Shown: in pieces, positions 20,210 to 42,040 of the stretch
How the letters are laid out: each line of letters opens with the position of its first letter
Position numbering within the stretch: position 1 is the first letter of the stretch
Virus record (IMG/VR): IMGVR_UViG_3300031963_011573
Coordinates: 32,001-96,000 of that record
Direction: 5' to 3' (one strand)
Length of the DNA: 64,000 nt
DNA from: a virus
The notes under the pieces: generated by a model
What the model was told of the DNA's origin: nothing
Database searches by the model: none
The model's input: only the letters and a program-made list of their open reading frames with translations
Position numbers and translations under genes: made by a program

Positions 20210-20635
20210 ATGGTAAAATTATCTCAACTACTAAAAGAAATATATGCTGAACCTAATAAATTTAATTATCCCCCATTAATTAAATCTCTTACAGAATATA
20301 TGTTGGGAAAAGGAATGAATATTCGTCCTTTACCTAAAGTAAAATTTGTTGATGATGATATTGAAAATTCCCAAAATTTCTTTGGAAAAACAGCATATTA
20401 TAACCCGAATGAAAAATCAATAGTTTTATACACTTATGGGCGTCACCCAAAAGATATAATGCGTTCGTTTGCTCATGAAATGATTCACCATGAACAAAAT
20501 TGTGAAGGGCGTTTAGGTAATACTCCTACTACTAATATCAATGAAGATGATTATCTATATGAATTAGAAAAAGAAGCTAATACATTAGGAACCATGATAT
20601 TTAGAGAATGGACAGACAAAATAACAAATAATTAA
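20210..20635 (+). CDS. HExxH zinc-metallopeptidase-like protein with N-terminal KLSQLLKE motif
   Basis: AHEMIHHEQ followed by LEKEAN as third-ligand motif. Confidence 0.7.
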   Translation: MVKLSQLLKEIYAEPNKFNYPPLIKSLTEYMLGKGMNIRPLPKVKFVDDDIENSQNFFGKTAYYNPNEKSIVLYTYGRHPKDIMRSFAHEMIHHEQNCEGRLGNTPTTNINEDDYLYELEKEANTLGTMIFREWTDKITNN

Positions 20636-20636
20636 T

Positions 20637-21209
20637 ATGTCAGATAACGTTTTAAAAAAACAATTCCAAAAAAACGACGTAGAACGCCTACGTAACCTTA
20701 TTAAAGGTAAACACGGTGACCGAACCACAGTAGGAATTGGTTATAACGGAGAAATAATAGAAGACCATAAAGAAGGTGATATTTGGGAACAAGGAGGTAA
20801 AACTTGGACTATTCGAGATGGAATTAAAGAAAATATCACTAAACTAGATAAATTTAAAAAAGTAGCAGTTCCTTTATTTTGCCCTGATTGCAAACAAATT
20901 ATGGATAAACAATTAGATCCACATTATTTTAAATCATATGGTCATTGTCTAGATTGTAGAACAAAATTTGAAACTCAACTTAAACTAGAAGGCAAATGGG
21001 AGGAATACACTAATTCTACATTCAATGCCGAAATAGATAAACAAATAGAAGAATATAAAGGTTATTTTGAATCACTCCTTTCAGAAGGAAACCAAGACTA
21101 TGTTTCCGAAAATGGTGAAATTCAAAAATGGGTTGGTGGAATAGATAAAGAGCGTGCTCAAAACGCTTTAGATGAGATGGTTAAACACTTAAATTCTTTA
21201 AAAAAATAA
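20637..21209 (+). CDS. Hypothetical Zn-finger protein
   Basis: CPDC...CLDC. Confidence 0.7.
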   Translation: MSDNVLKKQFQKNDVERLRNLIKGKHGDRTTVGIGYNGEIIEDHKEGDIWEQGGKTWTIRDGIKENITKLDKFKKVAVPLFCPDCKQIMDKQLDPHYFKSYGHCLDCRTKFETQLKLEGKWEEYTNSTFNAEIDKQIEEYKGYFESLLSEGNQDYVSENGEIQKWVGGIDKERAQNALDEMVKHLNSLKK

Positions 21210-21832
21210 TGGAAACTTTTACAATGATAACAACTGTCTTAGTAGCACTAATTACAGCTGTTGTAGGACCTATAATTGTTAATTGGTTTAAAATTAAAAT
21301 GGAAAAAAAAGATACCTCTACTCCAATGAGAGATGCTCTTGAAACCTCTACTTTAATTGACACCCAATTAGAACAAATAATGGATGAATTAGAAAGTGAT
21401 CGTATTTGGATAGCCCAATTCCATAATGGAGGCTATTTTTACCCTACAGGCAGATCAATCCAAAAATTCTCCATATTTTATGAAAAATGTACCCCAGAAA
21501 CACCTACCATCCAGAATACATTCCAAAACATTCCTGTATCTTTATTTCCTAGAGTATTATCCAAAATATACAAAGATAATGAATTATCAATTGAGGATGT
21601 AGATATAGAAGAAGATACATATGGTTTAGAATATATAACAACACAATTTGGTACTAAATCAATTTGTATGGTTGGTTTACATAGTTTAGATAATCATTTA
21701 ATAGGTGTATTAGCTATTTCCTTTCAAAACCCACACCATATTACAAAAGATGAATGGATTTATATAAGACAAAAAGTAGGAGTTGTAGGAACACTACTTT
21801 CCGAATATTTATACACGACAACAAAAAAATAA
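21209..21832 (+). CDS. Single-TM protein with GAF-like domain; candidate T4 T-type holin
   Basis: N-terminal TM helix, then DRIWIAQFHNG...SICMVGL...LIGVLAISF GAF-like strands. Confidence 0.55.
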   Translation: METFTMITTVLVALITAVVGPIIVNWFKIKMEKKDTSTPMRDALETSTLIDTQLEQIMDELESDRIWIAQFHNGGYFYPTGRSIQKFSIFYEKCTPETPTIQNTFQNIPVSLFPRVLSKIYKDNELSIEDVDIEEDTYGLEYITTQFGTKSICMVGLHSLDNHLIGVLAISFQNPHHITKDEWIYIRQKVGVVGTLLSEYLYTTTKK

Positions 21833-21834
21833 AA

Positions 21835-22374
21835 ATGGACAATTTTGACTTAAAAAAATTCTTAAAAGAAAGTAAAGCTCTAGAGAATTTAAACCCTATA
21901 CTAAAAAAAGAAAACCTTAGTGAAGGTAACATGCGTGGTAAAATCCGCGAAATGATTTTAGCTGAATTGGGAAACCCAGATGACTATGATTATGATCCAA
22001 ATGATGATTACGGGGATGATGAATCTAGTTATTTTCCTCATATGCAAGGTTTAGAAGATGAACCTGAAAGTGAATTAGAGGAAGCTAAAAAGAAAAAAGA
22101 CGAAGAAGTAGAAGATGTTGAAACAACTGATACTGAAACAACTGATACAACTGAAGAAATGCCTGCTGAGGAAGCGCCTGCTGAAGATGCACCTGCTGAT
22201 GGAGGTGGTTTAGAAGATGTAGCTGCAAACATGGAAGGTACTGAAGGTGAATTAATGGACCATTTAATGAGTGCATTTAAAATTGCTAAAGGTATGAACA
22301 ATGAAAAACTTGAAACACAAGTTGGAAACACACTTAAATTTTTCGTTAGCGAATATATTGGTGGAGGAGAATAG
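21835..22374 (+). CDS. Acidic hypothetical protein (start corrected to 21835, MDNFDLKKFLKE)
   Basis: ATG 2 nt after the previous stop; late motif at 21805-21813; N-terminus matches the 29413 ORF. Confidence 0.75.
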   Translation: MDNFDLKKFLKESKALENLNPILKKENLSEGNMRGKIREMILAELGNPDDYDYDPNDDYGDDESSYFPHMQGLEDEPESELEEAKKKKDEEVEDVETTDTETTDTTEEMPAEEAPAEDAPADGGGLEDVAANMEGTEGELMDHLMSAFKIAKGMNNEKLETQVGNTLKFFVSEYIGGGE

Positions 22375-22405
22375 TAATTAATTAAATCTATATAAAATAA
22401 AATCT

Positions 22406-22579: not shown

Positions 22580-22580
22580 A

Positions 22581-23462
22581 ATGCAAAAAAAAAGAACCGA
22601 AAATTCAATTGAAAAATCCAACGGAACTTCCGTTGGATCTTTTGGTTCTTTAACTGAAGGATTTATCCCAACACCTGAACAATCAAAGGAAATAGTAGAT
22701 AAATTCAAATCCATTATCAACACTCGTTTAGATAAACTATATGATACTAGAGGAGCAGATGGAGAATTATACGCTTATGGCATTGCTGTTAATCAAGTAA
22801 AGAAAAAAGCAGAATCGGGTGCTGAAACACCTGAAGAAACACCAACAGAAGAACCAATGGATAAAGAAACTAAATTAAAAGAAATGATTCAAGCGGCTTT
22901 ATCTAAGCCTTTAAATGAAAAGAAAAAATCTTTCCCTGATTTGACAGGTGATGGTAAAGTAACTCAAGCTGATATTTTAAAAGCACGAGGGGTTGAATTA
23001 GAGGAAGACCTTGATTTAGGTCACCAAGATGATGAACCACACATGCTTAAATCTGATTTATATGATATTGGGAAATATGCTATAGAACTTTATAAAATAG
23101 TTGATCAATTTGAAGGTGAACAAGAAGTTGATTTCCCACACTGGTGGCAAGCAAAAATTGTTAAAGCCAAAGAACTTATATCTTCAGCAAAACATTATCT
23201 TGAATTTGAGATAAAAGAACCTCAAATCGATGCTATGGTAGATGTAGTTTCTGAAGAAGATGTAATTGATGAAAAATTAAAACCTTCTATGGGTGCAGGA
23301 GCATATGTTAAAGATTTTGAAAAATCTGAAGCACCTCAATTTAAAGGTAAATCTGAAAAGAAAAAACAAAAAATGGCGGTAGCTGCTTATCTGTCTGCTA
23401 AAGATAAAACTAAGAAAAAAATAAAAGAAGCTATTTTAGCTAAATTTAAAAATAAACAATGA
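22581..23462 (+). CDS. Hypothetical modular protein with an EF-hand/dockerin-like loop
   Basis: DLTGDGKVTQADIL loop; modules separated by LxE sites; start uncertain. Confidence 0.6.
   Translation: MQKKRTENSIEKSNGTSVGSFGSLTEGFIPTPEQSKEIVDKFKSIINTRLDKLYDTRGADGELYAYGIAVNQVKKKAESGAETPEETPTEEPMDKETKLKEMIQAALSKPLNEKKKSFPDLTGDGKVTQADILKARGVELEEDLDLGHQDDEPHMLKSDLYDIGKYAIELYKIVDQFEGEQEVDFPHWWQAKIVKAKELISSAKHYLEFEIKEPQIDAMVDVVSEEDVIDEKLKPSMGAGAYVKDFEKSEAPQFKGKSEKKKQKMAVAAYLSAKDKTKKKIKEAILAKFKNKQ
22616..22643 (+). terminator. Strong hairpin/terminator downstream of the Hc1-like gene
   Basis: ATCCAACGGA-ACT-TCCGTTGGAT, a perfect 10-bp stem followed by CTTTT. Confidence 0.55.
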
Positions 23463-23923
23463 CCCGCAACCAACTAAAAGATAGAATTAGAAACCTAGTA
23501 AAACAATCATATTCCCAACAAACTATTACCCCAGAGGAAGCTGTTCAATATGATGAGTTAACTAAATTTCCTGAACTGAAAAAAGTTATAGTTGATTTAT
23601 TGACAAACGAATATGATAATTTTTTGGAATCTATTGATTGGGTTGCTCCACGTCCTACTACATTTAGAATTAACTTAAAAAACGGACAAGAATTTTATCT
23701 AATTTATGGTAAACGCAGTTGGATTGCCCAAATAGAAGGCAAAAAATATTATCTAAAAAACCTCCCAGAAGAACAACGTGCGGCAGAATCTATAGCTCAA
23801 ATTTTGAGATATGGAACCCCTGAGAAAAAATCTGAAGAAGAATTTGAACCAGAAGCTGGAGCAGAAACTCCACCTGCTGAAGAAACACCACCAGCTGAAG
23901 AAACACCACCAACAGAAGCATAA
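23459..23923 (+). CDS. Hypothetical protein with ETPPAE x3 tail
   Basis: ORF track; 18-bp tandem repeats near 23864-23917. Confidence 0.75.
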   Translation: MTRNQLKDRIRNLVKQSYSQQTITPEEAVQYDELTKFPELKKVIVDLLTNEYDNFLESIDWVAPRPTTFRINLKNGQEFYLIYGKRSWIAQIEGKKYYLKNLPEEQRAAESIAQILRYGTPEKKSEEEFEPEAGAETPPAEETPPAEETPPTEA

Positions 23924-24810
23924 TGGATATTTTAGAAAAATTTTTAAATAGTATAGCTTACAAGTTTCCTAAAGGATATCCTGATATGAAGGATCCTAAC
24001 GATGTTGAATTGCTTCATAAGTTATTAAATGAAGTAATTGATTTAGAAGAATTAAAAACCAAACCTCATTGGGATGAACGAATTAAGGAAAGAGGTACTA
24101 TATTAGATATAATTAGTTTTCCTAAAGATTATCCTTTATCTAAACAAGAAGTTATTAAACAAATTGAAGATGAACTTAATAGGAGAGCTATCAATTTAGA
24201 AAAACTTAAAGAAGTTCCATTATCTCTTCCATATAAAATAGGATACAAATTATTCAAACCACTACTTAATTATAACGGGAAAAATATATCTCTTGATTTA
24301 AAAGTTGAATATACTGTTAAAGGTATTAAAAAAATAGGAATAGGGAACTCATTTGTGGCTGTAATAAATAATGATACATTAATTACTTTACTATTATTAC
24401 CAAGTGATGATAATCCTACTATAGAATTATCTTTAGAAAAGCACGAAGAAAGAGAATATGGAAAACCTAAACCAATAAAAATAATTTCTTCAAGTAATTA
24501 TGAATTTATCATTACTCCTAAACCAGAAAGCTCTCAATTAATTAAAATTACAGATCTACCATATAAAGTAAAAACTTCATATCGTCCTGGAACAACTTTT
24601 ACTCATGACAAATATGGAACTGGAACTATTATAGCAGCAGCCTCCGCTGGGACTAGATCAGGTGAGCCTGATAGTAGAGGAATAGTCGATTGGGTTGAAG
24701 TAGATTTTGGTAAACCATATGTTTTAGGCGGGCAATTTAAAAAAACAAGAACTATAAAAGACGTATATACTTCAATTTCTCCTGACTTAGACTCCCCAGC
24801 AGCTGAATAA
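23923..24810 (+). CDS. Hypothetical protein (N-terminal YKFPKGYPD module)
   Basis: ORF track; ends in PAAE. Confidence 0.75.
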   Translation: MDILEKFLNSIAYKFPKGYPDMKDPNDVELLHKLLNEVIDLEELKTKPHWDERIKERGTILDIISFPKDYPLSKQEVIKQIEDELNRRAINLEKLKEVPLSLPYKIGYKLFKPLLNYNGKNISLDLKVEYTVKGIKKIGIGNSFVAVINNDTLITLLLLPSDDNPTIELSLEKHEEREYGKPKPIKIISSSNYEFIITPKPESSQLIKITDLPYKVKTSYRPGTTFTHDKYGTGTIIAAASAGTRSGEPDSRGIVDWVEVDFGKPYVLGGQFKKTRTIKDVYTSISPDLDSPAAE

Positions 24811-25964: not shown

Positions 25965-26473
25965 AACCAGCAGATTTAGTTACACCTGAATTAATTCAAT
26001 ATTGTATTCAATTTAACACAATAGTGGTTTTAGGTTACACTAAAACAGGTAAACTTCCAATAGCTAAAAAAATTGCCCAAGAATTAGATCGTCCTTTATT
26101 TATTTCTGATGAGTATTTAGAATTAAAAGATCCATTAGATGCTTTTATGAGTGATGTTACTTGGCATCAAAGAAGAGGAAATCAAATAGTAATTGAAGGT
26201 ACTTTATGTTTTAGATTATTAAGAAAAGGTTTAGAATTATCTAATTTTAATACTGATTTAATTATCAAAACTAAATGTAATGATGAAACAATAAAACATT
26301 TTTATAGAATAGATGGTGAGGAATCTAAAATTAAACGAGCTCTCTCATTTAATCAAGGTTTAAATAAAATATGGGATGAATATAGAGGAATATTACAAAC
26401 TAAAACATATAATGAAATCCCTAAATTTATAGAATTAGAAACCACACTCCCTGAATATTCGTATTTCTCATAA
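25961..26473 (+). CDS. P-loop kinase-like protein
   Basis: VVLGYTKTGKL degenerate Walker A; IVIEG strand typical of NMP-kinase folds. Confidence 0.55.
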   Translation: MKPADLVTPELIQYCIQFNTIVVLGYTKTGKLPIAKKIAQELDRPLFISDEYLELKDPLDAFMSDVTWHQRRGNQIVIEGTLCFRLLRKGLELSNFNTDLIIKTKCNDETIKHFYRIDGEESKIKRALSFNQGLNKIWDEYRGILQTKTYNEIPKFIELETTLPEYSYFS

Positions 26474-26481
26474 TATTTATT
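26473..26481 (+). promoter_or_regulatory. Putative late promoter ATATTTATT
   Basis: Motif 8 nt before ATG 26490. Confidence 0.6.
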
Positions 26482-26489
26482 AACATATT

Positions 26490-26948
26490 ATGATTAAATT
26501 AATTAATTTACTCAAAGAAATTACTGGGTTCTCAAATTGGAAAATACCTTCCTCGTCTCAACTTAAACAAGAGTTTAAGATAGAACAAGAAATGAAGGGT
26601 AATGAATTTTGGGAAGATGAAGAAGCTTTTTTAAATGCTGTTAAAAACGGTAAAATTGTAACTGTTACTCCTTCTGAAGATCAAGATATAGATTATAGAA
26701 GCGGAACCGAATCATATGAAGAACTTTTAGGTCTTATTAAATCATATCGATCATATCCTGAATTTAGAAATGAAAAAACATTGCAATCTATTTATGATGG
26801 ATTTAAAAATAATTCTCCTATGGATTTACCGATAATTATAGAAGACGATAACGGGTATAGAAGAATTTTTTCTGGGAATACAAGAATGGATATAGCTTTT
26901 CAATTAGGTATAAACCCGAAAGTATTACTCATTAAAGGAGATTTATGA
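26490..26948 (+). CDS. ParB/sulfiredoxin-like domain protein with N-terminal KLINLLKE motif
   Basis: LPIIIE...RRIFSGNTRMDIAFQLG matches the ParB-N P-I-I-V...[DS]G[HN]xR pattern. Confidence 0.6.
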   Translation: MIKLINLLKEITGFSNWKIPSSSQLKQEFKIEQEMKGNEFWEDEEAFLNAVKNGKIVTVTPSEDQDIDYRSGTESYEELLGLIKSYRSYPEFRNEKTLQSIYDGFKNNSPMDLPIIIEDDNGYRRIFSGNTRMDIAFQLGINPKVLLIKGDL

Positions 26949-27514
26949 TTAGATTAGTAGATTTATTAAAAGAAATAAACGAGGCCAAACAAGTAGGAGA
27001 CATCTATCATTTTACTGATACTGATACTATAACCTCTATGATCAAAGATTATGGAGGCATAACCTTAGACCCTTCATTCTCTAGCTTTGCAGCAGATAAG
27101 TACTATTCCTTTACCAGAAACCCCAACTTAGGCACTCTTTCAGAAGAAAAACACCACGTTAGAATAAAACTTAATGGAGATAAAATGTCCAATAAATATA
27201 AATTTGAGCCATATGCTGATTTAGAAAGTGGTGAAGATTTATACTCTAAAAACGCTCCTAATTATGAATCTGAAGAACGAATTAATTCTAAAAAATATGG
27301 AGAAATAAATTTAACTCCATATATTGAAGAAATAACTATCATTAGTCCTGATAGTTTTAAAGAATATCTTGAAAGTTATCATTCTGGTACTAAATATTAT
27401 GATGAAATATTAAATGATTATAATTTTGTTTTAGATTGGATTAAATCTAAAAATATACCTCTTAAATTCTCCCAAGCTAGATCCACATCCTCCATTAGGA
27501 GAGCAGCTGAATAA
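26945..27514 (+). CDS. ADP-ribosyltransferase-fold candidate with N-terminal RLVDLLKE motif
   Basis: IYHFT, YSFTR and ESEER motifs in the order of ART strands 1, 2 and 5. Confidence 0.45.
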   Translation: MIRLVDLLKEINEAKQVGDIYHFTDTDTITSMIKDYGGITLDPSFSSFAADKYYSFTRNPNLGTLSEEKHHVRIKLNGDKMSNKYKFEPYADLESGEDLYSKNAPNYESEERINSKKYGEINLTPYIEEITIISPDSFKEYLESYHSGTKYYDEILNDYNFVLDWIKSKNIPLKFSQARSTSSIRRAAE

Positions 27515-27525
27515 TATTTATTAAT

Positions 27526-28635
27526 ATGGAACGTTTACGACAACTTATAAAAGAAGTACTTTCAACTCCACCTAAAAAAGATAGCTGTAATTGTGGTTGT
27601 CATGATTGTGATAATGTAGGTAATACTGGTGTAGTATTAAATGAAAGTTTAGTTAAAAAAGATATATTGTCGGAAAATCTGCGTTATCACGTGGATAATA
27701 AACTACCACTAACTGAAAACACATTCCGTTATGGTTCTCAAGCATTCCTTGATTTATGGTCGGAAGCTCGTTATTTATATTTACGTGAAATAATTCATGT
27801 AAATGATGATGATAAAGAAATTTTACTTGAAACTAATTTAGGTGAATATGGAATGTATGAAGGTAACAAAGTACCTTTAGATTTACCTATGTTAGAGGAA
27901 AACCAATACCAACCTATCTTAGAAGATATTAAGATGTATGGTAAAATATACGAGGCTGTAAATATAGAAAATTCCTACAAACTAGATGATATTAAATCAA
28001 ACGAAGTAGGAAATGAATTTATTTTTACAGATAAACATGGTATTAAACGTAAATTGATGTTTTTAAGAGGAAATAGCGTTAAATTGTTATGGTTTAACCC
28101 CACCACTCAAGAATGGACAACAGACGATATTCCTAGTAAATATGAAGATGAAAAAGTAATGAATACTTTTGGTATGTTATTAGTTAAAGTAATATTACCA
28201 AAATATGGTTCATTTAATTTTCAAGCTTTAAATGCCGCTCGTTACCGTTTATTTAGAGCATTAATCTATAATAATTTAGACACTTCAAAATATGAAATGG
28301 ATTATGACGATGAAAACAAATCAATTGAAGTTCATCAAATAGATACATTAACAGAAGAAGATAAAAAGAAAACTCCACCAATTGGAAAACCAAAACGTGG
28401 TGGATCTAAAAAATTCTACGTTTATGTTAGAAATAAAGGTAAAGTTAAAAAAGTATCTTTTGGACAAGTAGGAATGTCTGCTAAAATAAATGACCCTAAA
28501 GCACGCAGAGCATTTGCTGCACGTCACGATTGTAAAAATAAAACAGATAGAACTAAACCTTCATATTGGAGTTGTAGGCTTCCAAGGTACGCATCTTTAT
28601 TAGGTCTAAAAAGTTCTTTTAGCGGTTTCTGGTAA
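27526..28635 (+). CDS. Modular hypothetical protein with basic C-terminal domain (KKFYVYV..VSFG..RRAFAARHDC..YWSC)
   Basis: Late motif at 27514-22; N-terminal RLRQLIKE; CNCGCHDC cluster; several LxE sites. Confidence 0.75.
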   Translation: MERLRQLIKEVLSTPPKKDSCNCGCHDCDNVGNTGVVLNESLVKKDILSENLRYHVDNKLPLTENTFRYGSQAFLDLWSEARYLYLREIIHVNDDDKEILLETNLGEYGMYEGNKVPLDLPMLEENQYQPILEDIKMYGKIYEAVNIENSYKLDDIKSNEVGNEFIFTDKHGIKRKLMFLRGNSVKLLWFNPTTQEWTTDDIPSKYEDEKVMNTFGMLLVKVILPKYGSFNFQALNAARYRLFRALIYNNLDTSKYEMDYDDENKSIEVHQIDTLTEEDKKKTPPIGKPKRGGSKKFYVYVRNKGKVKKVSFGQVGMSAKINDPKARRAFAARHDCKNKTDRTKPSYWSCRLPRYASLLGLKSSFSGFW

Positions 28636-28650: not shown

Positions 28651-28809
28651 ATGAAAAAATCTGAATTAAAACAACTTATCAAAGAAGAAATTATCCAACA
28701 AAAACTTTTAGAGGAAAAAAATAAAAAAGCCTCTAAAATTAACCAGAATCTTTCAAATTTGATAGAAAAAATGAAAAAAGACTTCAATATAGAAGATGAG
28801 CGATTTTGA
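28651..28809 (+). CDS. Small 52-aa protein beginning MKKSELKQLIKEEI (missing from ORF track)
   Basis: Manual translation to TGA 28807-09; A-rich leader; carries the shared N-terminal motif. Confidence 0.7.
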   Translation: MKKSELKQLIKEEIIQQKLLEEKNKKASKINQNLSNLIEKMKKDFNIEDERF

Positions 28810-29412: not shown

Positions 29413-29853
29413 ATGGATAACTTTGATTTAAGAAAATATTTAGCTGAAGGTAAATTATATGAAGCAGCTATGGCTTGTCCTTTACCTACCCAAGATTTAG
29501 AACTTAACACCAAAAATAGAGACTCAGCTATTAAAGCAGATTATATTAAATATGGTCCTTTAAATGTTGATGAACCTGGAGATTATTGGGACGAATTAGC
29601 AGAACATTGGGATACAACAGTTGAAGCTGCTAAACAATCTTTATGTGCAAATTGTGCAGCATTTGATATTTCCCCAAGAATGGAAGATTGTATGCCTGGA
29701 CCATTACAAGATGAAGATGGAAAATTAGGATATTGTTGGATGCATAGTTTTAAGTGCCATTCAGCTCGTACTTGTAGGACATGGGCTAAAGGTGGTCCTA
29801 TTACACAAGATAGTATATCTTATGATTGGCAAGAGCGTAAAGAAAGTGAGTAA
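29413..29853 (+). CDS. Cys-rich (metal-binding) protein with MDNFDLRKYLAE N-terminus
   Basis: CANCAAF...GYC.....C....TC..W. Confidence 0.75.
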   Translation: MDNFDLRKYLAEGKLYEAAMACPLPTQDLELNTKNRDSAIKADYIKYGPLNVDEPGDYWDELAEHWDTTVEAAKQSLCANCAAFDISPRMEDCMPGPLQDEDGKLGYCWMHSFKCHSARTCRTWAKGGPITQDSISYDWQERKESE

Positions 29854-30109
29854 ACCATACATTGACATAGAAGTTACAGACAAATATATTATTCGTGAGT
29901 TTAACGAAAATATAGATCCAATTGAATTAAAATGGCATAGGGATTTAGAGAGTCGTACTGTTGAAATTTTAGAAGATACAGATTGGAAACTTCAATTAGA
30001 TAATAGCTTGCCTACCTCACTAAAAGAACATATATTTATACCTGCATTAGAATGGCATCGTGTAATAAAAGGAACAGGAACATTAAAGTTAAAAATACAT
30101 AAATTATGA
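29846..30109 (+). CDS. Small cupin-like protein (probable GTG start at 29846)
   Basis: LKWHRD.E and IFIP..EWHRVIKG cupin-like motifs. Confidence 0.65.
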   Translation: MSKPYIDIEVTDKYIIREFNENIDPIELKWHRDLESRTVEILEDTDWKLQLDNSLPTSLKEHIFIPALEWHRVIKGTGTLKLKIHKL

Positions 30110-30387
30110 AAAAAACTGATTTAAAAAATACAATCAAAGAGGAAATTAAAAAAGTATTAATGGAGGAAACGAGTAGAACATCTATACCTCTTATCCGTGG
30201 AGCTCTTAATCAAATAGAAGAGAATGGTAAAATAGAAACTATGAATGCTATGCTTAGAAATCTTACAGATGAAGAAGCTAGACAATTCAATTTACTTGTT
30301 CAAAAAGGAATAGGAAAAGAAATTAAAAGGATCCCAACTAATTCCCCAGCAGCTGATCCTCGTTTAACCCCAGGAACAACAGATTAA
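30106..30387 (+). CDS. Hypothetical protein with N-terminal DLKNTIKEEIKKVLME motif
   Basis: ORF track; shared N-terminal motif. Confidence 0.7.
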   Translation: MKKTDLKNTIKEEIKKVLMEETSRTSIPLIRGALNQIEENGKIETMNAMLRNLTDEEARQFNLLVQKGIGKEIKRIPTNSPAADPRLTPGTTD

Positions 30388-33172: not shown

Positions 33173-33703
33173 ATGAAAATAGGTTTTTGTGGAACAATGT
33201 CTGTAGGTAAAACCACTTTAGTTAATGCTTTAAAAGAACTACCAGAATTTAACGATTTTTATTTTGCAACAGAACGTTCAAAATATTTACGTGATTTAGG
33301 TATTCCATTAAATACTGATTCAACAATAAAAGGCCAATTTATATTTTTAGCTGAACGCGCATCTGAGTTACTTAGGGATAAAGTCATAACAGATCGCACA
33401 GTTATAGATGTAATGGCTTTTACACGTTTAGCTGAATCGATTCCATACTATATAGCAGATGAGATATGTCAAGCGGCTTCATATTTAATAGGTGAATATG
33501 ATTATATATTCTACATTTCCCCTGAAGGTGTAGAAATAGAGGATAATGGTGTTAGAACAACAAACTCAGAATATAGAAAAGACGTTGATTTAGAGATTCA
33601 AGGTTTGTTAAGAAAATATCCTCATAAAATAAAAAATTTCACAATTTTAACAGGCAATGTTGAGGAAAGAATACAAAAAGTTAAACAGACGCTATTTTCG
33701 TAA
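33173..33703 (+). CDS. NadR/Ttd14-type AAA_28 ATPase/kinase
   Basis: GTMSVGKTT Walker A, ITDRTVID, EDNGVR motifs. Confidence 0.82.
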   Translation: MKIGFCGTMSVGKTTLVNALKELPEFNDFYFATERSKYLRDLGIPLNTDSTIKGQFIFLAERASELLRDKVITDRTVIDVMAFTRLAESIPYYIADEICQAASYLIGEYDYIFYISPEGVEIEDNGVRTTNSEYRKDVDLEIQGLLRKYPHKIKNFTILTGNVEERIQKVKQTLFS

Positions 33704-33727
33704 TATTTATAAATAAACTATATTAAA

Positions 33728-34630
33728 ATGAAAAAAACTCGTTTACTTGAAATTATACGTGAAGAAATATCTAGTGCTCTAAGAGAAGGTGAAGCTGAAG
33801 AAAAAGCAGCTAAAGCGGCTGCACTTAAAGCTACTGATTTAGAAATTAAAGCTTTGCAAAAGAAAAAAGCTGACATGATGAGAACTGGTGTAGCTGAAGC
33901 TACACTTGAAGAAGATCTTTTAAATGAAACCCCAATCTATGATGTATCTGACATGGAAGGTTTTAAATCAGCTTTAGATAAATTTAGAGATGAGAATGTA
34001 TCAAAAAGTAAAGCTCTTAATCTTTTATTAACTAAATTAGAAGATGAAGGTACAGTTGATACTAATCAATTAAGTAAAGATATGGGGGTTGATACAGCTG
34101 CATTCAATAACCAGGAAATTAGAAAATTTTTAAATCGCCCTGAAGATGAATTTTTTGAAAATCCTAAAACTGGAGAAGAATTACTTGATTTTACACCATA
34201 TTTAACTAAAGCAGATAAAAAAAGAGGTAGAGCAGCAGGCGAAAAAACAACTACTGAACCTAAAATATCAGCTAAATCAAAAAGCACAACATCAACAGGA
34301 ACTAAAGAACCTAAAAAAGCTACTTTAACTAAAGGGGATGATGGATTTGATGATGTAACTTACTCTAAACCTGAAACAACTACTAAACCAAAAGCTACAG
34401 AAACGGACAAAGCAGATGCTGCTGCTTCTAAAACTCCTAAATTAGATAAATTAGCTAATAACCAAGATGCTCTTTTAAAAGCTCAAAAAGAAACCCAAAG
34501 TAAAATGAAAGAACTAGCTGGTAAGATTAGAGGAGCTGAAGGGGCTGAAAGAGAAAATTTAATGGGCGAACTTAAAAAATTAAATAAATTAAATGGAGAA
34601 ATTCAATCTAAATTGGATAAACTATTTTAA
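33728..34630 (+). CDS. Charged hypothetical protein with N-terminal RLLEIIREEISSALRE motif
   Basis: Late motif at 33703-11; K/E/T-rich linker; C-terminal coiled coil. Confidence 0.75.
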   Translation: MKKTRLLEIIREEISSALREGEAEEKAAKAAALKATDLEIKALQKKKADMMRTGVAEATLEEDLLNETPIYDVSDMEGFKSALDKFRDENVSKSKALNLLLTKLEDEGTVDTNQLSKDMGVDTAAFNNQEIRKFLNRPEDEFFENPKTGEELLDFTPYLTKADKKRGRAAGEKTTTEPKISAKSKSTTSTGTKEPKKATLTKGDDGFDDVTYSKPETTTKPKATETDKADAAASKTPKLDKLANNQDALLKAQKETQSKMKELAGKIRGAEGAERENLMGELKKLNKLNGEIQSKLDKLF

Positions 34631-34710: not shown

Positions 34711-35277
34711 ATGACTATAAAAACTAAAATAATACTCGGACTATCAGCTATATTAACAATATGTTTAATAGCATTATATGGTTTATTTAAATTGTATCAA
34801 CATGAAAAAGAAGAAAGAAAACGATACAATAACAACATGATTGCTCTTGTAGAAGATAAAAGTAAACAACAATCACTCACGTTAAATGAACTTAAAAAGT
34901 TATACCCAAAATATGATTCTTTAGCTAAAGTGCTTAATATCAAAACTAAAAATATTACTGATATAGTAGAAACTAGATACCGTTTTAAAGATTCTATTTT
35001 AACATCTACTATATTAAAAAAAGATAGTATATCTGAAAAAGCATATTTTGCATTAACTGAAAAATGTTATAAATTTTCGGGGTTTATTAAAAAAGATTCC
35101 ATATCATTCACCAATAAAGAATTTAAAGATAATTTAACAACATTTTTATACAAAGATTGGGAGAAAAAATATTTATGGGGACTGTTAAAATTTAACCCAT
35201 TTTATACTTCCAAAGTATATAGTGAATGCATGCAAGATACAATTGCAGTCATTAACAATATAAAAATTAAAAAATAA
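34711..35277 (+). CDS. Membrane-anchored coiled-coil protein, possible inner spanin (start corrected to 34711)
   Basis: N-terminal TM (IILGLSAILTICLIALYGLF) then coiled coil; the ORF-track start falls inside the terminator. Confidence 0.5.
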   Translation: MTIKTKIILGLSAILTICLIALYGLFKLYQHEKEERKRYNNNMIALVEDKSKQQSLTLNELKKLYPKYDSLAKVLNIKTKNITDIVETRYRFKDSILTSTILKKDSISEKAYFALTEKCYKFSGFIKKDSISFTNKEFKDNLTTFLYKDWEKKYLWGLLKFNPFYTSKVYSECMQDTIAVINNIKIKK

Positions 35278-36869
35278 TGGGCCAAGACCTAAAACAGGCA
35301 ATAAGAGAAGAATACATAAAATGCGCTTCATCCCCAGCATATTTTATGAAAAGATACTGCTACATCCAACATCCAAAACGTGGCCGCATTCAATTTAACT
35401 TATACCCATTCCAAGAACGCGTTTTAACTTTATTTCAAGAAAATCCATATTCAATTGTTTTAAAATCTAGACAGCTAGGTATTTCAACACTATCGGCGGG
35501 TTATTCTTTATGGTTGATGATGTTTCACCAAGATAAAAATGTACTTTGTATTGCAACAAAACAAGAAACTGCTAAAAACATGGTTACAAAGGTTAAGTTT
35601 ATGTATAATAACTTACCATCTTGGCTTAAATTTCCAAACAAACCAGAAGAAGAAAATAAATTAACACTTCGATTACCAAACGGTTCCCAAATTAAAGCAA
35701 CTTCAGCCTCTAGTGATGCAGGTCGTTCAGAAGCCGTTTCTTTATTGATAATAGATGAGGCTGCTTTTATTAACAATATAGGTGAGATATGGGCCTCAGC
35801 TCAACAAACATTAGCAACTGGTGGTGGTTGTATTGCATTATCTACACCTTATGGTACAGGTAACTGGTTCCATAAAACATGGGTTGCTGCTGAATTAAGT
35901 GAAAATAGCTTTTTACCTATCCGTTTACCCTGGAGTGTGCATCCTGAAAGAGACCAATCATGGAGAGACCAGCAAGATGCTGATTTAGGTCCTAAAATGG
36001 CTGCTCAAGAATGTGACTGTGATTTTTCCACCTCAGGTGATACTGTATTTTTGGCAGATGAAATAGAATTTTACGAAAAAACATTTATTACAGACCCAAT
36101 CGAAAAACGTGGAATTGATCAAAATTTATGGATCTGGGAACCAGCTGATTATTCAAAAAACTATTTAATTACAGCGGATGTTGCTCGAGGTGATGGAGCG
36201 GATTACTCTACATTTCATATTTTAGATATTGAAACATACAAGCAAGTAGGAGAATATAAAGGACAAATCAGTACAAAAGATTTTGGACATTTACTGGTTG
36301 CAATTGCAACAGAATATAATAATGCTTTACTTGCTCCTGAAAATTCTAGTATAGCTTGGTCAACTATTCAAACTATCCTTGATAGAGGGTACCATAATTT
36401 GTATTATTCACCCAAAAGCAATGCTTTAACAGTTGATAGTTATTTTGACCCATACATGGATCATAGTAAAATGACACCTGGATTTACAATGTCCTCAGCT
36501 ACTAGACCTATTTCAATAGGTAAATTTCAAGAAGCTGTTCGAGATAGAGGTGTTATTATCCAATCAGCTAGACTGATAGAGGAAATGAAGGTATTTATAT
36601 GGAGAAATGGCAGACCAGAAGCACAACCTGGATACAATGATGATTTAATTATGGCATTTGCAATCATGTCTTTTTTACGAGAAACAGCATTTAAACTAAG
36701 ACAAAATGGTATGGAAATGACCAAAAGTATGCTTAACAGTATCCATACTAATAATACAACATATTCGGGAGGTTATTCAAATGCCCAACCAAATAAATAC
36801 AATAACAACCCATTTAAAATAGATAACCCTTATTCAAACGGTCAAGAAGATATTTCATGGCTAATCTAA
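35277..36869 (+). CDS. terL: Terminase large subunit (T4 gp17-like)
   Basis: LKSRQLGIS Walker A, IIDEAAF Walker B, STPYG, QECDCDF, ADVARG and DDLIMA RNase H motifs. Confidence 0.95.
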   Translation: MGQDLKQAIREEYIKCASSPAYFMKRYCYIQHPKRGRIQFNLYPFQERVLTLFQENPYSIVLKSRQLGISTLSAGYSLWLMMFHQDKNVLCIATKQETAKNMVTKVKFMYNNLPSWLKFPNKPEEENKLTLRLPNGSQIKATSASSDAGRSEAVSLLIIDEAAFINNIGEIWASAQQTLATGGGCIALSTPYGTGNWFHKTWVAAELSENSFLPIRLPWSVHPERDQSWRDQQDADLGPKMAAQECDCDFSTSGDTVFLADEIEFYEKTFITDPIEKRGIDQNLWIWEPADYSKNYLITADVARGDGADYSTFHILDIETYKQVGEYKGQISTKDFGHLLVAIATEYNNALLAPENSSIAWSTIQTILDRGYHNLYYSPKSNALTVDSYFDPYMDHSKMTPGFTMSSATRPISIGKFQEAVRDRGVIIQSARLIEEMKVFIWRNGRPEAQPGYNDDLIMAFAIMSFLRETAFKLRQNGMEMTKSMLNSIHTNNTTYSGGYSNAQPNKYNNNPFKIDNPYSNGQEDISWLI

Positions 36870-36879: not shown

Positions 36880-38772
36880 ATGGCAGATACTAGATTATTC
36901 TCAAGATTAAAACGATTGTTTTCAACAGACGTAATCATTCGAAATGAAGGAGGTGAGTTGAAAGTAATGGATATTAATAAAATCCAACAATCAGGTGATT
37001 ATGAAACAAATGCCTTAGTTGATAGATTTAACCGAATATACACTAACTCACATACCTCAATTTATGGTTACCAAAGCAGCTTTAACTATCAAACTCTACG
37101 CCCCACTCTTTACTCAGAATATGATGCTATGGACACAGATGCTATCGTTGCCTCTGCGTTAGATATTTTAGCTGATGAATGTACTTTACGTAATGATATG
37201 GGTGAAGTACTCCAAATTAGAAGTTCAGACGAGGATGTTCAACGTGCTTTATATAATTTGTTCTATGATGTATTGAACGTTGAATTTAACTTATGGCCTT
37301 GGATTCGTAATATGTTGAAATACGGTGATTTCTTTTTAAAACTAGAAATTTCCGAAAAATTTGGTGTATATAATGTAATTCCTTACAATGCATTTCATAT
37401 TGAAAGACAAGACGGATATGATAAAGATCATCCAAATGATATAAGATTCAGATTTGATCCAGATGGAATTTCATCCCCATCAAATTATGGATACTATAAC
37501 GTACCAAACTCTGCAAATCAATCAAACGATATATATTTTGACAATTACGAAATGGCTCATTTCCGTTTATTAACGGACACTAACTTTTTACCTTATGGTA
37601 GATCATATCTTGAACCAGGCCGTAAGTTATTTAAGCAATATACGATGATGGAAGATGCGATGTTAATTCACCGTATCGTTAGAGCACCTGAAAAACGTAT
37701 ATTCTCAATTAATGTTGGTAATATTGCTCCTGCTGAAGTAGAAAACTTTATGCAGAAAACAATATCCAAAATGAAACGTACTCCATATATTGATCAACAA
37801 ACAGGTGATTATAACTTAAAGTACAATATGCAAAACTTGCTTGAGGACTTTTACATCCCAGTTAGAGGAAACGATCAAGCAACCAAAATTGATACTTTAG
37901 GTGGTTTACAATACGATGGTATTACAGATGTAGAATATTTAAGAGACAAATTATTTGCTGCCCTTAAAGTTCCAAAAGCGTTTATGGGGTATGAAAAAGA
38001 TTTAACTGGTAAGGCAACATTAGCTGCTGAAGACATTCGTTTTGCTCGTACAATTGAACGCATTCAACGTATTGTTGTATCTGAATTAACTAAAATTGCT
38101 CTAGTTCATTTATATACTCAAGGATACACTGATGAGAATTTAACTAATTTTGAACTTTCATTAACTACACCTTCAATCATATATGACCAAGAAAGAGTAG
38201 CATTGATGAAAGAAAAAACAGAATTAGCTATCTCAATGATAGAAAATAAATTGATGCCTTCTGATTGGATATATGAAAATTTATTCCATTTAAGTGAAGA
38301 TCAATACGATGAATATAGAGACTTGATTCTTCAAGATGCTAAACGTAAATTCCGTGTAACTCAAATTGAAAACGAAGGTAATGATCCACTTGAAACAGGT
38401 AAATCTTACGGTACACCACATGATTTAGCTTCTTTATATGGAAGAGGAAGATATGAAGGCGAAGTACCTGAAGGATATGATGAAAAAGAACCATTAGGAA
38501 GACCAAAAGAAAAAGTAACAGATCGAAACACTCAAGATAGTGTTTTTGGAAAAGATAGAATAGGAGCTATAGGAGCTAAAGTAGATGGAGATGAATCAAA
38601 CTCAACTAAACCAGAATATAAAGGTGGATCTCCATTAGCACTTGAAACTAAAATTAAACGAAACAAAAATAGTAAAATGTTTAATAACATTAAAAATCAA
38701 AAGAAACAAATTATTTTTGAATCGGATATTAGAGGAAATTCATTGTTAGATGAATCACAAATACGAGAGTAA
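36880..38772 (+). CDS. gp20: Portal protein (T4 gp20-like)
   Basis: MMEDAMLIHRIVRAPEKRIF.INVGN, EDFYIP.R, IDTL.G, LKVPK motifs. Confidence 0.93.
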   Translation: MADTRLFSRLKRLFSTDVIIRNEGGELKVMDINKIQQSGDYETNALVDRFNRIYTNSHTSIYGYQSSFNYQTLRPTLYSEYDAMDTDAIVASALDILADECTLRNDMGEVLQIRSSDEDVQRALYNLFYDVLNVEFNLWPWIRNMLKYGDFFLKLEISEKFGVYNVIPYNAFHIERQDGYDKDHPNDIRFRFDPDGISSPSNYGYYNVPNSANQSNDIYFDNYEMAHFRLLTDTNFLPYGRSYLEPGRKLFKQYTMMEDAMLIHRIVRAPEKRIFSINVGNIAPAEVENFMQKTISKMKRTPYIDQQTGDYNLKYNMQNLLEDFYIPVRGNDQATKIDTLGGLQYDGITDVEYLRDKLFAALKVPKAFMGYEKDLTGKATLAAEDIRFARTIERIQRIVVSELTKIALVHLYTQGYTDENLTNFELSLTTPSIIYDQERVALMKEKTELAISMIENKLMPSDWIYENLFHLSEDQYDEYRDLILQDAKRKFRVTQIENEGNDPLETGKSYGTPHDLASLYGRGRYEGEVPEGYDEKEPLGRPKEKVTDRNTQDSVFGKDRIGAIGAKVDGDESNSTKPEYKGGSPLALETKIKRNKNSKMFNNIKNQKKQIIFESDIRGNSLLDESQIRE

Positions 38773-38806
38773 CAAATTTTTATATATTTATAAATAAACA
38801 AACATT

Positions 38807-38914
38807 ATGGCTTATATTTATAGACATGTTACTTCTGAAAATATTCCTTTTTATATAGGAATTGGGAGTGATAAAAAATATAAAAGAGCATACAAATACA
38901 TTTGGAAAAAATAA
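38807..38914 (+). pseudogene. Internally deleted GIY-YIG homing-endonuclease remnant (35 aa)
   Basis: MAYIYRHVTSENIPFYIGIGSDKKYKRAYKYIWKK*: a GIY-YIG-type start joined to a NUMOD1-like terminal AY.YIWK. Confidence 0.6.
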
Positions 38915-38917
38915 AAT

Positions 38918-39775
38918 ATGTTAATTCGTCATTCAAAATATAAAAATACGGGTATACTTTTTGAACTTTTAGTTCGTCAAATTACCACTGATACACTAGA
39001 CGGTAAAGATTCCCCTGCAAAAGATATACTTAAAAAATATTTCGTTAAAACGGAATTGGGTCGTGAATATAGGTTATATGAAACGTTACTTAAAAAAACA
39101 TCCCTTACAGAAACTAAAGCAAATATTGTAGTTTCTACTTTAACTGAATCATCTAAAAGTTTAAATAGAGGGGTAATTAAAAGACAAAAATATAATTTGA
39201 TTAGTGAAATTCAAAAACATTATGATTTAAATGAATTTTTTAATCATAAACTTCCTAATTACAAAGTATATGCTGCTTTTTATACATTGTTAGAAATTAC
39301 CCATTCTCAAACCTCTATTAATCCTGAACAAACTATCACAAATAAAGTTACTATTTTAGAGCATTTAACAGCTGCTCAAATTAAAGAAAGTGCTGTTCGT
39401 GATGAAGTTTTAACAGAACTAGACAACTCAGATAAAGATGTTAAGTTTCTTGCATATAAAATATTAATGGAGAAATTTAATAACAAATACGATGATTTAA
39501 GCCTAAACCAAAAAATCATCCTTAAAGAATACATCAATTCAGTAGATAATACATCTCGCTTAAAAGAATTTTACACAGATAAAATAAACGAGATTAAAGT
39601 TGAATTAAAAAAATTAAACAACAAAACAAACAACCCAGTTACAAAAATTAAAATTAACGAGATTATCTCTGTTATCAATCCACCAGCAAAAAATGCTAAA
39701 ATAACAGATAATGATTTAGTTGATTTACTACAGTATTGTGATTTAATCAATGAATTAGAAACTGTAAATGGATAA
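38918..39775 (+). CDS. Hypothetical head-module protein
   Basis: HSKYKNTGILFELLVRQIT start; lies between portal and protease. Confidence 0.7.
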   Translation: MLIRHSKYKNTGILFELLVRQITTDTLDGKDSPAKDILKKYFVKTELGREYRLYETLLKKTSLTETKANIVVSTLTESSKSLNRGVIKRQKYNLISEIQKHYDLNEFFNHKLPNYKVYAAFYTLLEITHSQTSINPEQTITNKVTILEHLTAAQIKESAVRDEVLTELDNSDKDVKFLAYKILMEKFNNKYDDLSLNQKIILKEYINSVDNTSRLKEFYTDKINEIKVELKKLNNKTNNPVTKIKINEIISVINPPAKNAKITDNDLVDLLQYCDLINELETVNG

Positions 39776-40223
39776 GTTAAAAGAAATAATCCGTAAAAAA
39801 CTCAAAGAAATGAGTGCTACCAATGTTGGTGGTGCTACTGCTTCCCCTGGTGAAGGTATAGGAATGGCTACTAAACCCGCGTTTAATAAAAATAAAAACG
39901 CTAAAGGTGCTAAAAATATATACTATTACAAGTTAGGATTTAAAAATGTCCCAAACATTAAACCAAAATCTTACGATAAGAAAAAATTATGGGAAGAAGA
40001 TAAAGAACCATCCGCAGCAAAAAAATTTCAAAACGAAAGAATTGACGAATTTACTCAAATTGAAAATCTTTTAAAAGACTTATCCCCTCTTGTATCAAAT
40101 GCTAAAAATGATACTTTAGAATACTACGCAGCTAACCCAGGTTCATTTGATATTTATAAACCGTCTTCAATGGTTTTAGCATATATTCAAAAAGCAGTAG
40201 ATTTATTAAAACAAAAACAATGA
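39768..40223 (+). CDS. Hypothetical head-module protein with KLKEIIRKKLKE N-terminus
   Basis: ORF track; shared N-terminal motif. Confidence 0.7.
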   Translation: MDKLKEIIRKKLKEMSATNVGGATASPGEGIGMATKPAFNKNKNAKGAKNIYYYKLGFKNVPNIKPKSYDKKKLWEEDKEPSAAKKFQNERIDEFTQIENLLKDLSPLVSNAKNDTLEYYAANPGSFDIYKPSSMVLAYIQKAVDLLKQKQ

Positions 40224-42040
40224 AAAAAACATTACAAGATCAGTATTTATTAATCAAAGAAGGTAAAGGACATAAAGGTGTTTTTCTTACTGAAGCTAAA
40301 CGTAATTTTCCTCATATAGTACCAAATTCTGCTACATTTGAGGAAGCAGCTGCATCTCTTAAAACTAAAAACATAATTTCAGAAAATGTGATTGGTTTGA
40401 CTGCTGTTGCTGGATATGAGCCTAAGAAAAAAGAGTCATACGAAACTGCGTTTGAGGCATTTTTAGTTGAAGCTAAAAAGAAAAAAGAAAATGAAGACGA
40501 GAAAGTAAAAGCAGAAGAGAAAAAAGTATCTAAACCTGTTGAAAAAGATCTTGAAAAACAATACGATAAAATAGACGATAAAACCCCAGACAATTTGATC
40601 TTTGATCAAATTATGATGGGTTATTATGCTGAAATGAAAGATCCTAAAAATGCTGATAAAACAATGCAACAATTGAAAGATATTGTGTTGAAAAACTTAT
40701 CAAAAGATCCAATTCACTATACAAAAGATGGTCAATTTGGTGTAAAAGATTTAGGATATGTAACTGAACATCCTGGTTTAGGCACCCCAAAAGAAGCTAC
40801 TGGAAAATACAAATCATCTGGATACGGTAATTTAAATGAAAATAAAGAACTTAACGTTGGTGATACTGTAAAATATAAAGGAATTAAAGTTACAGTAGAA
40901 AAAAAAGACGAAGTAGGTAATTTAGTATTGAAATCTGAAAGTGGTAAAACAATTAGAGCAAATAAAGCACAATTTAAAGAATATGGTTCTTTAGAAGAAG
41001 AAAAACTTCGTAAAGCTATCCGTGAAATGATTGATGCTGAGTTAGAAGAAGTTAAAGGTGGTGGCAATTATGGAATGATGACCATCAACACTGCTAATAT
41101 TGAAAAAGGAGAACAAAAAATCCCAACATACTATATTTTAACATCCGAAGTTAGAAAAGAATTTAACCTTTTAAATCCAGGCCTTAATGCTCCTTCATAT
41201 GATGAATCATTAAAAATCCCTCATATCCGAATTACTCCTGACAATACTATCTTTATATCAGATTTACTTTATGTTACTTTAGGAGGAATGGAAAAAGGTA
41301 GAGGCACTAGAGAAAAACAAATTGAAGATAACAAAAACCGCCTTAAAGTTATCACTAATGAAATTTCAGATAGATATTGGCCAATGGTTAGAGCATTACT
41401 TAAAAAATATGCTGAATCAAAGACAACTATATACCCTGTACTAGGAAAAGATGTTTTATACCATCAAATTAGATTTAAAGAAAATGGGTATAAAGTAGAA
41501 AAATTAGAAGATTGGATTGGGAAAAAAATAAAAGAAATTAATGCTAAACTAGCACAAGCATCTTCTGGGGAAGTACGAAGAGGTCGTCCTATAAATGTTG
41601 AAGCTTTAATGAGATTTAAGAAGCAATTAGAAGATATGGAACCCAATGCTAAAGGTGGTGTAGCAATAATTCCTCCTCCGTTTCCGATGGGAGAATCTTT
41701 AATGGAAAGTGTAGAAAAAGATCTTGCCGCAATTAACAAAGAAGCAGAACATGAAACTTTACAATCTAAATTAGATAAAATCCAAGAATTAATTGATAAA
41801 AAACAATCTCAACTTAGTAAACTTGATGAGGATGAAGATATGAAAGCTTTAACTGATACTAAGAAAGTTAAAGAAATTCAAAAAGATATCAAAGCTTTAG
41901 AAAAAGCAAAATCTAAAGTTGAAAAAATGATGTCTAAATTTAAAGGTAAAATTAAAAAAACAGAAGTAATTGATGAAACAGACGACATGTTAGAAGACAA
42001 CATAATGGGTGAAGAAATGTCATATGACGAAAATTACTAA
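40220..42040 (+). CDS. Large modular prohead-core/internal protein candidate
   Basis: K/E-rich; many [LI]xE sites; C-terminal coiled coil; directly upstream of the protease. Confidence 0.6.
   Translation: MKKTLQDQYLLIKEGKGHKGVFLTEAKRNFPHIVPNSATFEEAAASLKTKNIISENVIGLTAVAGYEPKKKESYETAFEAFLVEAKKKKENEDEKVKAEEKKVSKPVEKDLEKQYDKIDDKTPDNLIFDQIMMGYYAEMKDPKNADKTMQQLKDIVLKNLSKDPIHYTKDGQFGVKDLGYVTEHPGLGTPKEATGKYKSSGYGNLNENKELNVGDTVKYKGIKVTVEKKDEVGNLVLKSESGKTIRANKAQFKEYGSLEEEKLRKAIREMIDAELEEVKGGGNYGMMTINTANIEKGEQKIPTYYILTSEVRKEFNLLNPGLNAPSYDESLKIPHIRITPDNTIFISDLLYVTLGGMEKGRGTREKQIEDNKNRLKVITNEISDRYWPMVRALLKKYAESKTTIYPVLGKDVLYHQIRFKENGYKVEKLEDWIGKKIKEINAKLAQASSGEVRRGRPINVEALMRFKKQLEDMEPNAKGGVAIIPPPFPMGESLMESVEKDLAAINKEAEHETLQSKLDKIQELIDKKQSQLSKLDEDEDMKALTDTKKVKEIQKDIKALEKAKSKVEKMMSKFKGKIKKTEVIDETDDMLEDNIMGEEMSYDENY

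Follow-up and report, generated by a model that had tools for sequence, protein, structure and literature searches.

A shared N-terminal leader on unrelated proteins of an uncultured T4-like phage, probably of the capsid-targeting type

The DNA analysed here (the window, 64 000 nucleotides) comprises bases 32001-96000 of the 106-kb IMG/VR record IMGVR_UViG_3300031963_011573, for which the completeness estimate is 63%. Our subject is a short amphipathic helix, referred to below as the tag or leader, that is shared by the N-termini of otherwise unrelated proteins. The G+C content is ~30%, almost all genes are on the + strand and no Shine-Dalgarno sequences were seen in the window. Among cultured phages, the 160-kb Flavobacterium myophages vB_FspM_immuto are closest, with 67% DNA identity across terminase and portal. 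The source phage is an uncultured T4-like phage of the Flavobacterium type with a host in the Bacteroidota.

Tagged genes and head genes of the window

The initial annotation quoted twelve similar N-termini, and all of them are present where it placed them. The open reading frames (ORFs) concerned are named here by their first nucleotide and are all on the + strand. Their tags have a common core of hydrophobic-x-x-hydrophobic-hydrophobic-x-Glu, with the Glu at residue 10, 12 or 14, and fall into three classes. Class C (M-[IV]-[KR]-L-x-x-L-[LI]-K-E, Glu10) is found on a 141-amino acid (aa) HExxH zincin-like metallopeptidase (20210-20635), on a 152-aa protein with a ParB/sulfiredoxin-like lead (26490-26948), on a 189-aa protein with a predicted ADP-ribosyltransferase (ART) fold (26945-27514; Glu10 and Glu13) and on a 369-aa protein that combines a Cys cluster at its N-terminus with a C-terminal DUF5754/phrog_7595-like domain (27526-28635). 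Class A (MKK[ST]xLxx[LI]I[KR]EE, Glu12), often with a second [AV]-L-x-E site ~8 residues downstream, occurs on a 52-aa ORF (28651-28809; MKKSEL..LIKE), a 93-aa ORF (30106-30387; second site Glu20) and a 300-aa low-complexity protein with a hypervariable body (33728-34630; again Glu20). A class A-like tag, with Glu12 and more [LIV]xE at 16, 20 and 28, begins a 111-aa ORF that adjoins baseplate genes (3728-4063).

Class B (MDNFDL[KR]K[FY]LxE, Glu12) is carried by a very acidic 179-aa protein with an isoelectric point (pI) of 4.1 (21835-22374; MDNFDL..FL.E) and by a 146-aa Cys-rich protein of a virus-only family (29413-29853). The start of the former is the in-frame ATG at 21835, the one used by relatives, rather than 21754; 38 of its 61 relatives are tagged under the strict pattern. 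The last two leaders end at Glu14 and belong to a 151-aa basic protein (39768-40223; pI 9.6), located between portal and protease, and to a 606-aa conserved head-module protein (40220-42040), in which LIKE is followed by Gly-Lys and for which tblastn gave no match among cultured phages. Many leaders contain a second [LIV]-x-Glu site 3-8 residues past the first. A further candidate (936-1274, + strand) is doubtful, its LLKEIY motif being located at residues 17-22 and not at the start.

The motif is strongly enriched at N-termini. [LI][KRA]E occurs within the first 15 residues of 15 of the 66 window ORFs, compared with 3.0% of internal 15-residue windows (binomial P=1e-9), and the stricter [LIVMFY][LI][KR]E in 11/66 ORFs, compared with 0.7% of internal windows (P=1e-12). 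Hits to [LI][KRA]E are concentrated at 20-42 kb (12 of the 31 ORFs there). The motif was picked post hoc from the same data, yet it was replicated in independent genomes. In 160 related metagenomic loci with 2631 ORFs, the general tag form was present at 19.7% of N-termini and in 1.4% of internal windows. In the complete immuto genome, a stricter pattern was found in one of ~145 ORFs of the first 80 kb, and matches cluster at 80-135 kb. The first 32 kb of our record, which hold ~85 small early ORFs of the same base composition, gave five weak matches and none of the LxxLLKE type. The shared pattern described in the initial annotation is thus confirmed.

Within the tags, codons vary synonymously (TTA/CTA/CTT/CTC, ATA/ATT/ATC and AAA/AGA/CGT), and the DNA upstream is unrelated. 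We conclude that the tag is conserved at the protein level, by selection on the peptide. An all-against-all BLASTP comparison of the tagged proteins revealed no paralogy outside the tag, in line with their earlier description as unrelated.

Two further N-termini resemble the tags. That of the large terminase (35277-35320; L-K-Q-A-I-R-E-E), conserved among relatives, fits the loose tag pattern and thereby limits how specific this pattern is. Because it is continuous with the conserved TerL N-terminus, we set this match aside as probably due to chance. The family of ORF 23459 (23459-23923) has a tag-like amphipathic helix in which Gln replaces Glu (L-V-K-Q-V-Y-S), and may represent an uncuttable variant or be unrelated.

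The head module is of the T4 type. It begins with the large terminase (35277), followed by a T4 gp20-type portal protein (36880-38772, + strand; PF07230, E=1.2e-67) and, between the portal and the tagged ORF 39768, by a 285-aa gene at 38918 with no function assigned. The prohead protease belongs to Peptidase_S77, the T4 gp21 family (42043-42675, + strand; PF03420, E=1.6e-26), and has an N-terminal LIE site of its own: it starts with MNKQLLIET, and T4 gp21 with MNEPQLLIET. Alignment with T4 gp21 showed that QLLIET, GEL-HP and SSRG-GS are kept, i.e. the His and Ser catalytic blocks. Next come an acidic scaffold (42864-44279, + strand; pI 4.2), with tag-like N-terminal sites at Glu10, 14 and 20 and a conserved C-terminal peptide ending in MQKLAGII, and a gp23-type major capsid protein (44305-45984, + strand; PF07068, E=1.9e-73, supported by alignment with T4 gp23), which probably starts at 44305 (MSSINSLLE). 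The scaffold, the protease and the capsid protein all bear N-terminal sites like those of the tags, as the initial annotation had noted. In T4, gp67 and gp68 are located between portal and protease; the tagged ORFs 39768 and 40220 sit in the same interval and may have a part in assembly instead of being cargo.

Immuto and 77 related scaffolds share the conserved C-terminal peptide of the scaffold (window 44247-44276; F-x-R-M-Q-K-L-A-G-I-I). In relatives, it was also found near the N-terminus of 11 other proteins (e.g. L003:11368-11760), with [LI]-[IL]-x-E behind it; a few further proteins have it close to their C-terminus. The copied peptide may be a second kind of head address. In immuto, the protein immuto_203 (L001:26574-27815) carries the GenBank label 'DNA polymerase phi-like protein'; its position, composition and termini are those of a gp22-like scaffold.

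A late-like promoter motif, ATAT[TG]TATWA, also written as the ATATTTATAA motif, is located 3-16 nt before the ATG of the tagged ORFs 3728 (motif at 3714-3723), 20210, 26490 (26473-26482), 27526 (27514-27523) and 33728 (33703-33712). It is likewise found ahead of the untagged tail genes 6341, 16548, 47281, 61241 and 63534. Host-type TTG-N17-21-TATATT sequences precede the untagged ORFs 18508, 24867, 30497 and 33173, and the earlier assignment of the two promoter types was confirmed in this respect. Since untagged tail genes share the late-like motif, the tags accompany genes of apparently late type and are no by-product of the late leader. The motif suggests that the tagged genes are of the late type. 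At 3714, 16535, 20198, 26473, 27514, 61225 and 63521, it ends 3-16 nt before the ATG, so that late mRNAs may be leaderless or nearly so. Downstream of the head genes, 53455-54168 and 54204-54917 are neighbouring paralogues of 237 aa with 69% identity.

Gain, loss and exchange of leaders in relatives

The same body can be found with different leaders. In the Cys-rich 29413 family, a class B or a class C leader precedes the same CP[LI]PTQ body, and members of the 26945 family have a class C or a class A leader. A protein that is tagged in the related locus L145 begins directly at GGNVF in immuto, and the 20210 HExxH family has members with and without a tag. In each of these families the join is located after the Glu. 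The immuto orthologue of 39768 has another leader with the same join (Glu, then Met-Ser), and that of 40220 has another leader with the same Glu/Gly-Lys join; immuto_156, the orthologue of 3728, has a leader of the same kind. Across 26 related contigs, the tag of 33728 is 86-100% identical and its body 23-35%, with the protease at 81-96%. T-even internal proteins show the same pattern of a conserved leader and a variable body (PMC3012670, PMC12373910).

A HMMER search with 26945 gave 463 representative clusters. For the analysis of leaders we used those 128 of the best 150 homologues that have a short leader before the KQVG-x-LYHFT core; they are mutually ≤50% identical. A Glu was found two residues ahead of the core in 125 of the 128, as part of hydrophobic-x-Glu in 119, and the residue after it was Ala, Gly or Ser in 104. 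The leaders peak in length at 11 and 14 residues and form distinct types, including the near-T4 MKTYNEFINE and MKTFKEFINE. With a near-T4-tagged ART homologue as tblastn query, one jumbo phage was the sole match.

Individual genomes use one tag type on consecutive unrelated genes, seven in L235 (MIKLKDIL-x-E) and six in L248 (MKTFKQHLQE-like), and in both the ART homologue bears the local type. As an attempt at falsification, the S77 protease was sought in records with a tagged member of the ART family. It was present in all three records that are at least 95% complete and in nine of 12 overall; the three records without it are only 27-42% complete.

The tagged bodies

The initial annotation had spoken of a varied set of enzymes. 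Enzyme-like folds could be assigned to three of the twelve window cargos (20210, 26945 and, as a lead only, 26490), so that this description fits part of the set; the remaining proteins have no enzyme assignment and are small, of low complexity, Cys-rich or without recognisable type. Most tagged window proteins had no match in Pfam or PHROG, and an Atlas search with the 29413 protein gave no function.

The AlphaFold2 (AF2) model of 26945 has a predicted local distance difference test (pLDDT) score of 86.6. Its top Foldseek match was Tpt1 (7yw4; E=9e-5), followed by DarT, KptA, Scabin and Arr, with template modelling (TM) scores of 0.45-0.68. Profile searches found DarT1 (E=0.028) and weak Pfam matches to Tox-ART-HYD1, DarT and Tpt1. 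Judged by these models, 26945 is predicted to be of the Tpt1/DarT-like ADP-ribosyltransferase fold. H22, S55, R58 and E110 are invariant in 60 sequences of the family. In metagenomic homologues of 1200-1800 residues (P0129, P0131 and P0135), the ART-fold domain is repeated five to six times; these multi-copy proteins may be polyproteins or polyvalent proteins. In two others (P0124 and P0166), the N-terminal module of the 23923 family (window 23923-24810), Y-K-F-P-K-G-Y-P-D-M, is fused before the ART domain, and between this module and the KQVG core there is an [LI]-x-E site.

In the 20210 family, H89, E90 and H93 of the HExxH motif are invariant and lie within helix 80-98 of the AF2 model. The tag helix of this model (residues 4-11) has a pLDDT of ~62-66 and is connected by a linker to a body above 90. 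Foldseek matches were weak (E=0.07 or worse) and were all zincins (selecase, IrrE/PprI and Wss1). The modelled protein looks like a small HExxH zincin metallopeptidase. For 26490, the ParB/sulfiredoxin-like assignment is a lead only.

In relatives of 27526, both ends of the protein (the tagged N-terminus and the DUF5754-like C-terminal domain) are retained, and the middle is variable or missing. This C-terminal domain also occurs untagged and alone in podoviruses (pelagiphages and roseophages) and in a spindle-shaped virus of Nitrosopumilaceae. Elsewhere in relatives, tags were found on a zeta-toxin/AAA_33-like kinase and on nucleotidyltransferases. Zincin, ART, ParB-like and kinase domains are typical of the repertoire of proteins predicted to enter the host together with phage DNA (PMC5512222).

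Function of the shared leader

In the T4 record (NC_000866), IPII and IPIII start with MKTYQEFIAE and gp24 with MAKINELLRE, i.e. with hydrophobic residues at 4, 7 and 8 and Glu10. The layout of class C tags agrees with this at each position, and that of classes A and B is shifted by two residues. In T4, residues 4 and 7 of the leader serve in targeting and residues 8 and 10 in processing, and gp21 cuts after L/I-x-E (PMC9026906). Replacement of the Glu by Asp in T4 abolishes processing and leaves targeting intact. Because the helix ends in a putative cut site of the head protease, the tagged proteins are probably loaded into the capsid like T4 internal proteins. We therefore consider it likely that this helix acts as a T4-type leader for capsid targeting and processing, with an enlarged set of cargos.

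The mechanism that we propose is as follows. Tagged genes would be transcribed together with the late structural genes, and the amphipathic leader of 10-14 residues would bind the scaffolding core during prohead assembly. Inside the prohead, the S77/gp21-type protease (42043-42675) would then cleave after the Glu of [LIV]-x-Glu, and the mature protein would be retained in the head as the scaffold is degraded. At the next infection, the cargo would exit with the DNA and act ahead of all phage gene expression. It would comprise the zincin peptidase, the ART-fold protein, a possible ParB-like protein, small acidic and basic proteins and the hypervariable 300-aa protein. The enrichment, the T4-type head genes, the gain, loss and swap of leaders, the genome-specific tags, the late-type motifs and the two predicted folds are what the sequences show; core binding, cleavage, head retention and injection are inferred. 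Of the earlier proposal of an expanded T4-type tag for loading and injection, the first part is supported by the S77 protease, the T4-type head, the layout of the capsid-targeting sequence (CTS), the modular joins after the Glu and the late-type genes; head loading and injection are the presumed part.

Several points weigh against the proposed function. We found no virion mass-spectrometry paper for this phage lineage in the literature. The number of cargo species, 12-15, would be far above the handful of T4. Some of the enzymes tagged in relatives, the zeta-toxin-like kinase and the nucleotidyltransferases, look cytoplasmic, and the tagged ORF 3728 is located among baseplate genes. The large terminase, which is no head-internal protein, fits the loose pattern too, and the helix of the 23459 family is similar with Gln instead of Glu. 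The timing of the tagged genes is read from the promoter motif and nothing else. Finally, the Glu ahead of the ART core, which the whole family retains, could have a structural role instead of marking a cut site.

The leader could instead dock the proteins to one cytoplasmic partner that they have in common (for instance a phage chaperonin, polymerase or membrane site) or mediate oligomerisation, with the Glu as part of the helix and the capsid uninvolved. The tag helix is amphipathic and generic in character, the tagged kinases and nucleotidyltransferases of relatives could work in the cytoplasm, GroES/GroEL are encoded by immuto, and the terminase fits the pattern too. We nevertheless regard this explanation as unlikely. 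The layout agrees with the T4 CTS and gp24 leaders at each position, and the same sites are borne by the N-termini of the phage's own protease, scaffold and capsid protein. The join to the body always comes after the Glu, followed by Ala, Gly or Ser, as at gp21 sites. Moreover, the low-confidence helix of the 20210 model is detached from the body, and tags are missing from ~230 early and metabolic ORFs of two genomes.

It is also rather improbable that the leaders do target the prohead core and are cut, but that most tagged proteins are core or assembly accessories that are degraded or expelled and not injected. ORFs 39768 and 40220 are in the position of gp67/gp68, these T4 core proteins have N-terminal L/I-x-E sites (T4 record), and several tagged proteins are small, of low complexity or coiled-coil-like. 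However, the folded enzyme-like bodies (ART fold and zincin) have no obvious role in assembly, and a hypervariable body behind a conserved tag is the signature of host-directed arms-race proteins such as T4 Ip1-3.

The likeness of the starts might be thought to come from AT-rich composition, from selection on the 5' coding region for translation initiation in a host that lacks Shine-Dalgarno sequences, or from recombination cassettes of promoter and start. In a genome of this G+C content, Lys, Ile, Leu and Glu are common, and the late motifs are just 3-16 nt from the ATG. The controls largely refute this explanation, which we consider very improbable. Composition bias is ruled out by the internal-window and early-gene controls in two genomes: the enrichment over internal windows of the same proteins is 7-14-fold, and the motif is absent in early genes of the same composition. 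An RNA-level or cassette origin is ruled out by the codon variation and the unrelated upstream DNA; in addition, the same late motif is found at untagged tail genes, and the tag motif is retained between phages of only 67% DNA identity. Equally hard to credit is the idea that the tagged proteins are divergent paralogues with the N-terminus as merely their best-conserved part: 21835 and 29413 share 12/12 first residues and 28651 and 30106 align weakly, but paralogy is ruled out by the all-against-all BLASTP and by clustering on bodies (about 49 separate tagged clusters in relatives), and neither the differing predicted folds (ART and zincin) nor the swapping of leaders between orthologues fits it.

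Capsid targeting thus remains the reading that we prefer, and it can be set beside known systems. The T4 CTS of IPI, IPII and IPIII, and the gp21-removed propeptides of gp24, Alt, gp67 and gp68, are alike in having a leader of ~10 residues that ends in L/I-x-E. The likeness extends to the placement of the leader on otherwise unrelated, fast-evolving proteins, and to the gp21-family protease with gp20, gp22-like and gp23 head genes. Moreover, T4 packages an ADP-ribosyltransferase, Alt. Unlike in T4, leaders of three classes (Glu at 10, 12 or 14) can replace one another, and at least 12 tagged genes lie in 64 kb, compared with three IPs and a few others in T4; packaging and cleavage are presumed here. 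The tagged window proteins have no sequence homology to any T4 internal protein, their genes are dispersed between those for replication and metabolism, the cargo would include folded enzymes and the host belongs to the Bacteroidota.

In the giant phages phiKZ, 201phi2-1 and SPN3US, a gp21-related protease likewise cleaves many head proteins behind a Glu, and the propeptides contain redundant sites. These propeptides are long and have no short tag in common, and cleavage occurs at S/A/G-x-E. Unlike for the giant phages, we know of no inner body in the lineage of the window phage. Encapsulin cargo-loading peptides and the C-terminal coat-binding helix of the P22 scaffold are also short peptides that address cargo into an HK97-fold shell. 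A parallel in relatives of the window phage is the reuse of the scaffold's own C-terminal peptide at the N-terminus of other proteins. The encapsulin and P22 peptides usually sit at the C-terminus and are not known to be removed proteolytically.

The hyperplastic internal-protein loci of T-even coliphages (Repoila et al. 1994, in the accounts given by PMC12373910 and PMC9026906) combine a conserved leader with diverse bodies and show body turnover between close relatives, comparable to 33728. In these accounts they hold small GmrSD inhibitors, whereas the window bodies are of other kinds. Among polyvalent proteins, host entry with the DNA is predicted for the same domains (zincin, ART, ParB-like and kinase; Iyer et al. 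2017, PMC5512222). In that class, at least two disparate effector domains are combined in one polypeptide, whereas each domain in the window is a separate small tagged protein; several domains per protein were found only in distant homologues of 26945. In T-even coliphages, both the CTS and the identification of internal-protein genes through their leader are established knowledge (PMC9026906, PMC12373910). We found nothing relevant in the literature on the CTS in cyanophages, Flavobacterium phages or other marine T4-like phages. The lineage, the three interchangeable leader classes, the dozen or more tagged genes and the enzyme-like cargos set the present case apart.

More tentatively, environmental T4-like phages may use a programmable address code, in which a lineage-specific tag co-evolves with the scaffold core, the MQKLAGII peptide of the scaffold is reused and the acquisition of a leader turns a protein into an injected effector. 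We hold this wider idea to be possible, at somewhat less than even chances. If it is true, the first-strike, pre-packaged proteome of uncultured phages would be readable straight from sequence. Here this set would consist of the ART-fold enzyme, the zincin, the ParB-like protein, a DNA-mimic-like acidic protein and the hypervariable protein.

A direct test of capsid targeting is possible, since Flavobacterium phage immuto (on strain LMO8), a relative in culture, has the same tags, on immuto_175-178, 188, 190, 193, 194, 198, 199 and 201. Should they function as they do in T4, an easy rule for N-termini would identify the proteins that a large, abundant group of aquatic phages injects before gene expression. 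Such proteins would be prime candidates for anti-defence and host takeover that are otherwise hidden among 'hypothetical proteins'. The tags would also provide natural, interchangeable signals for loading foreign proteins into the heads of non-coli phages. Moreover, the capsid-targeting mechanism of T4, so far studied in coliphages with three to ~ten small cargos, would be ancient and widely expanded.

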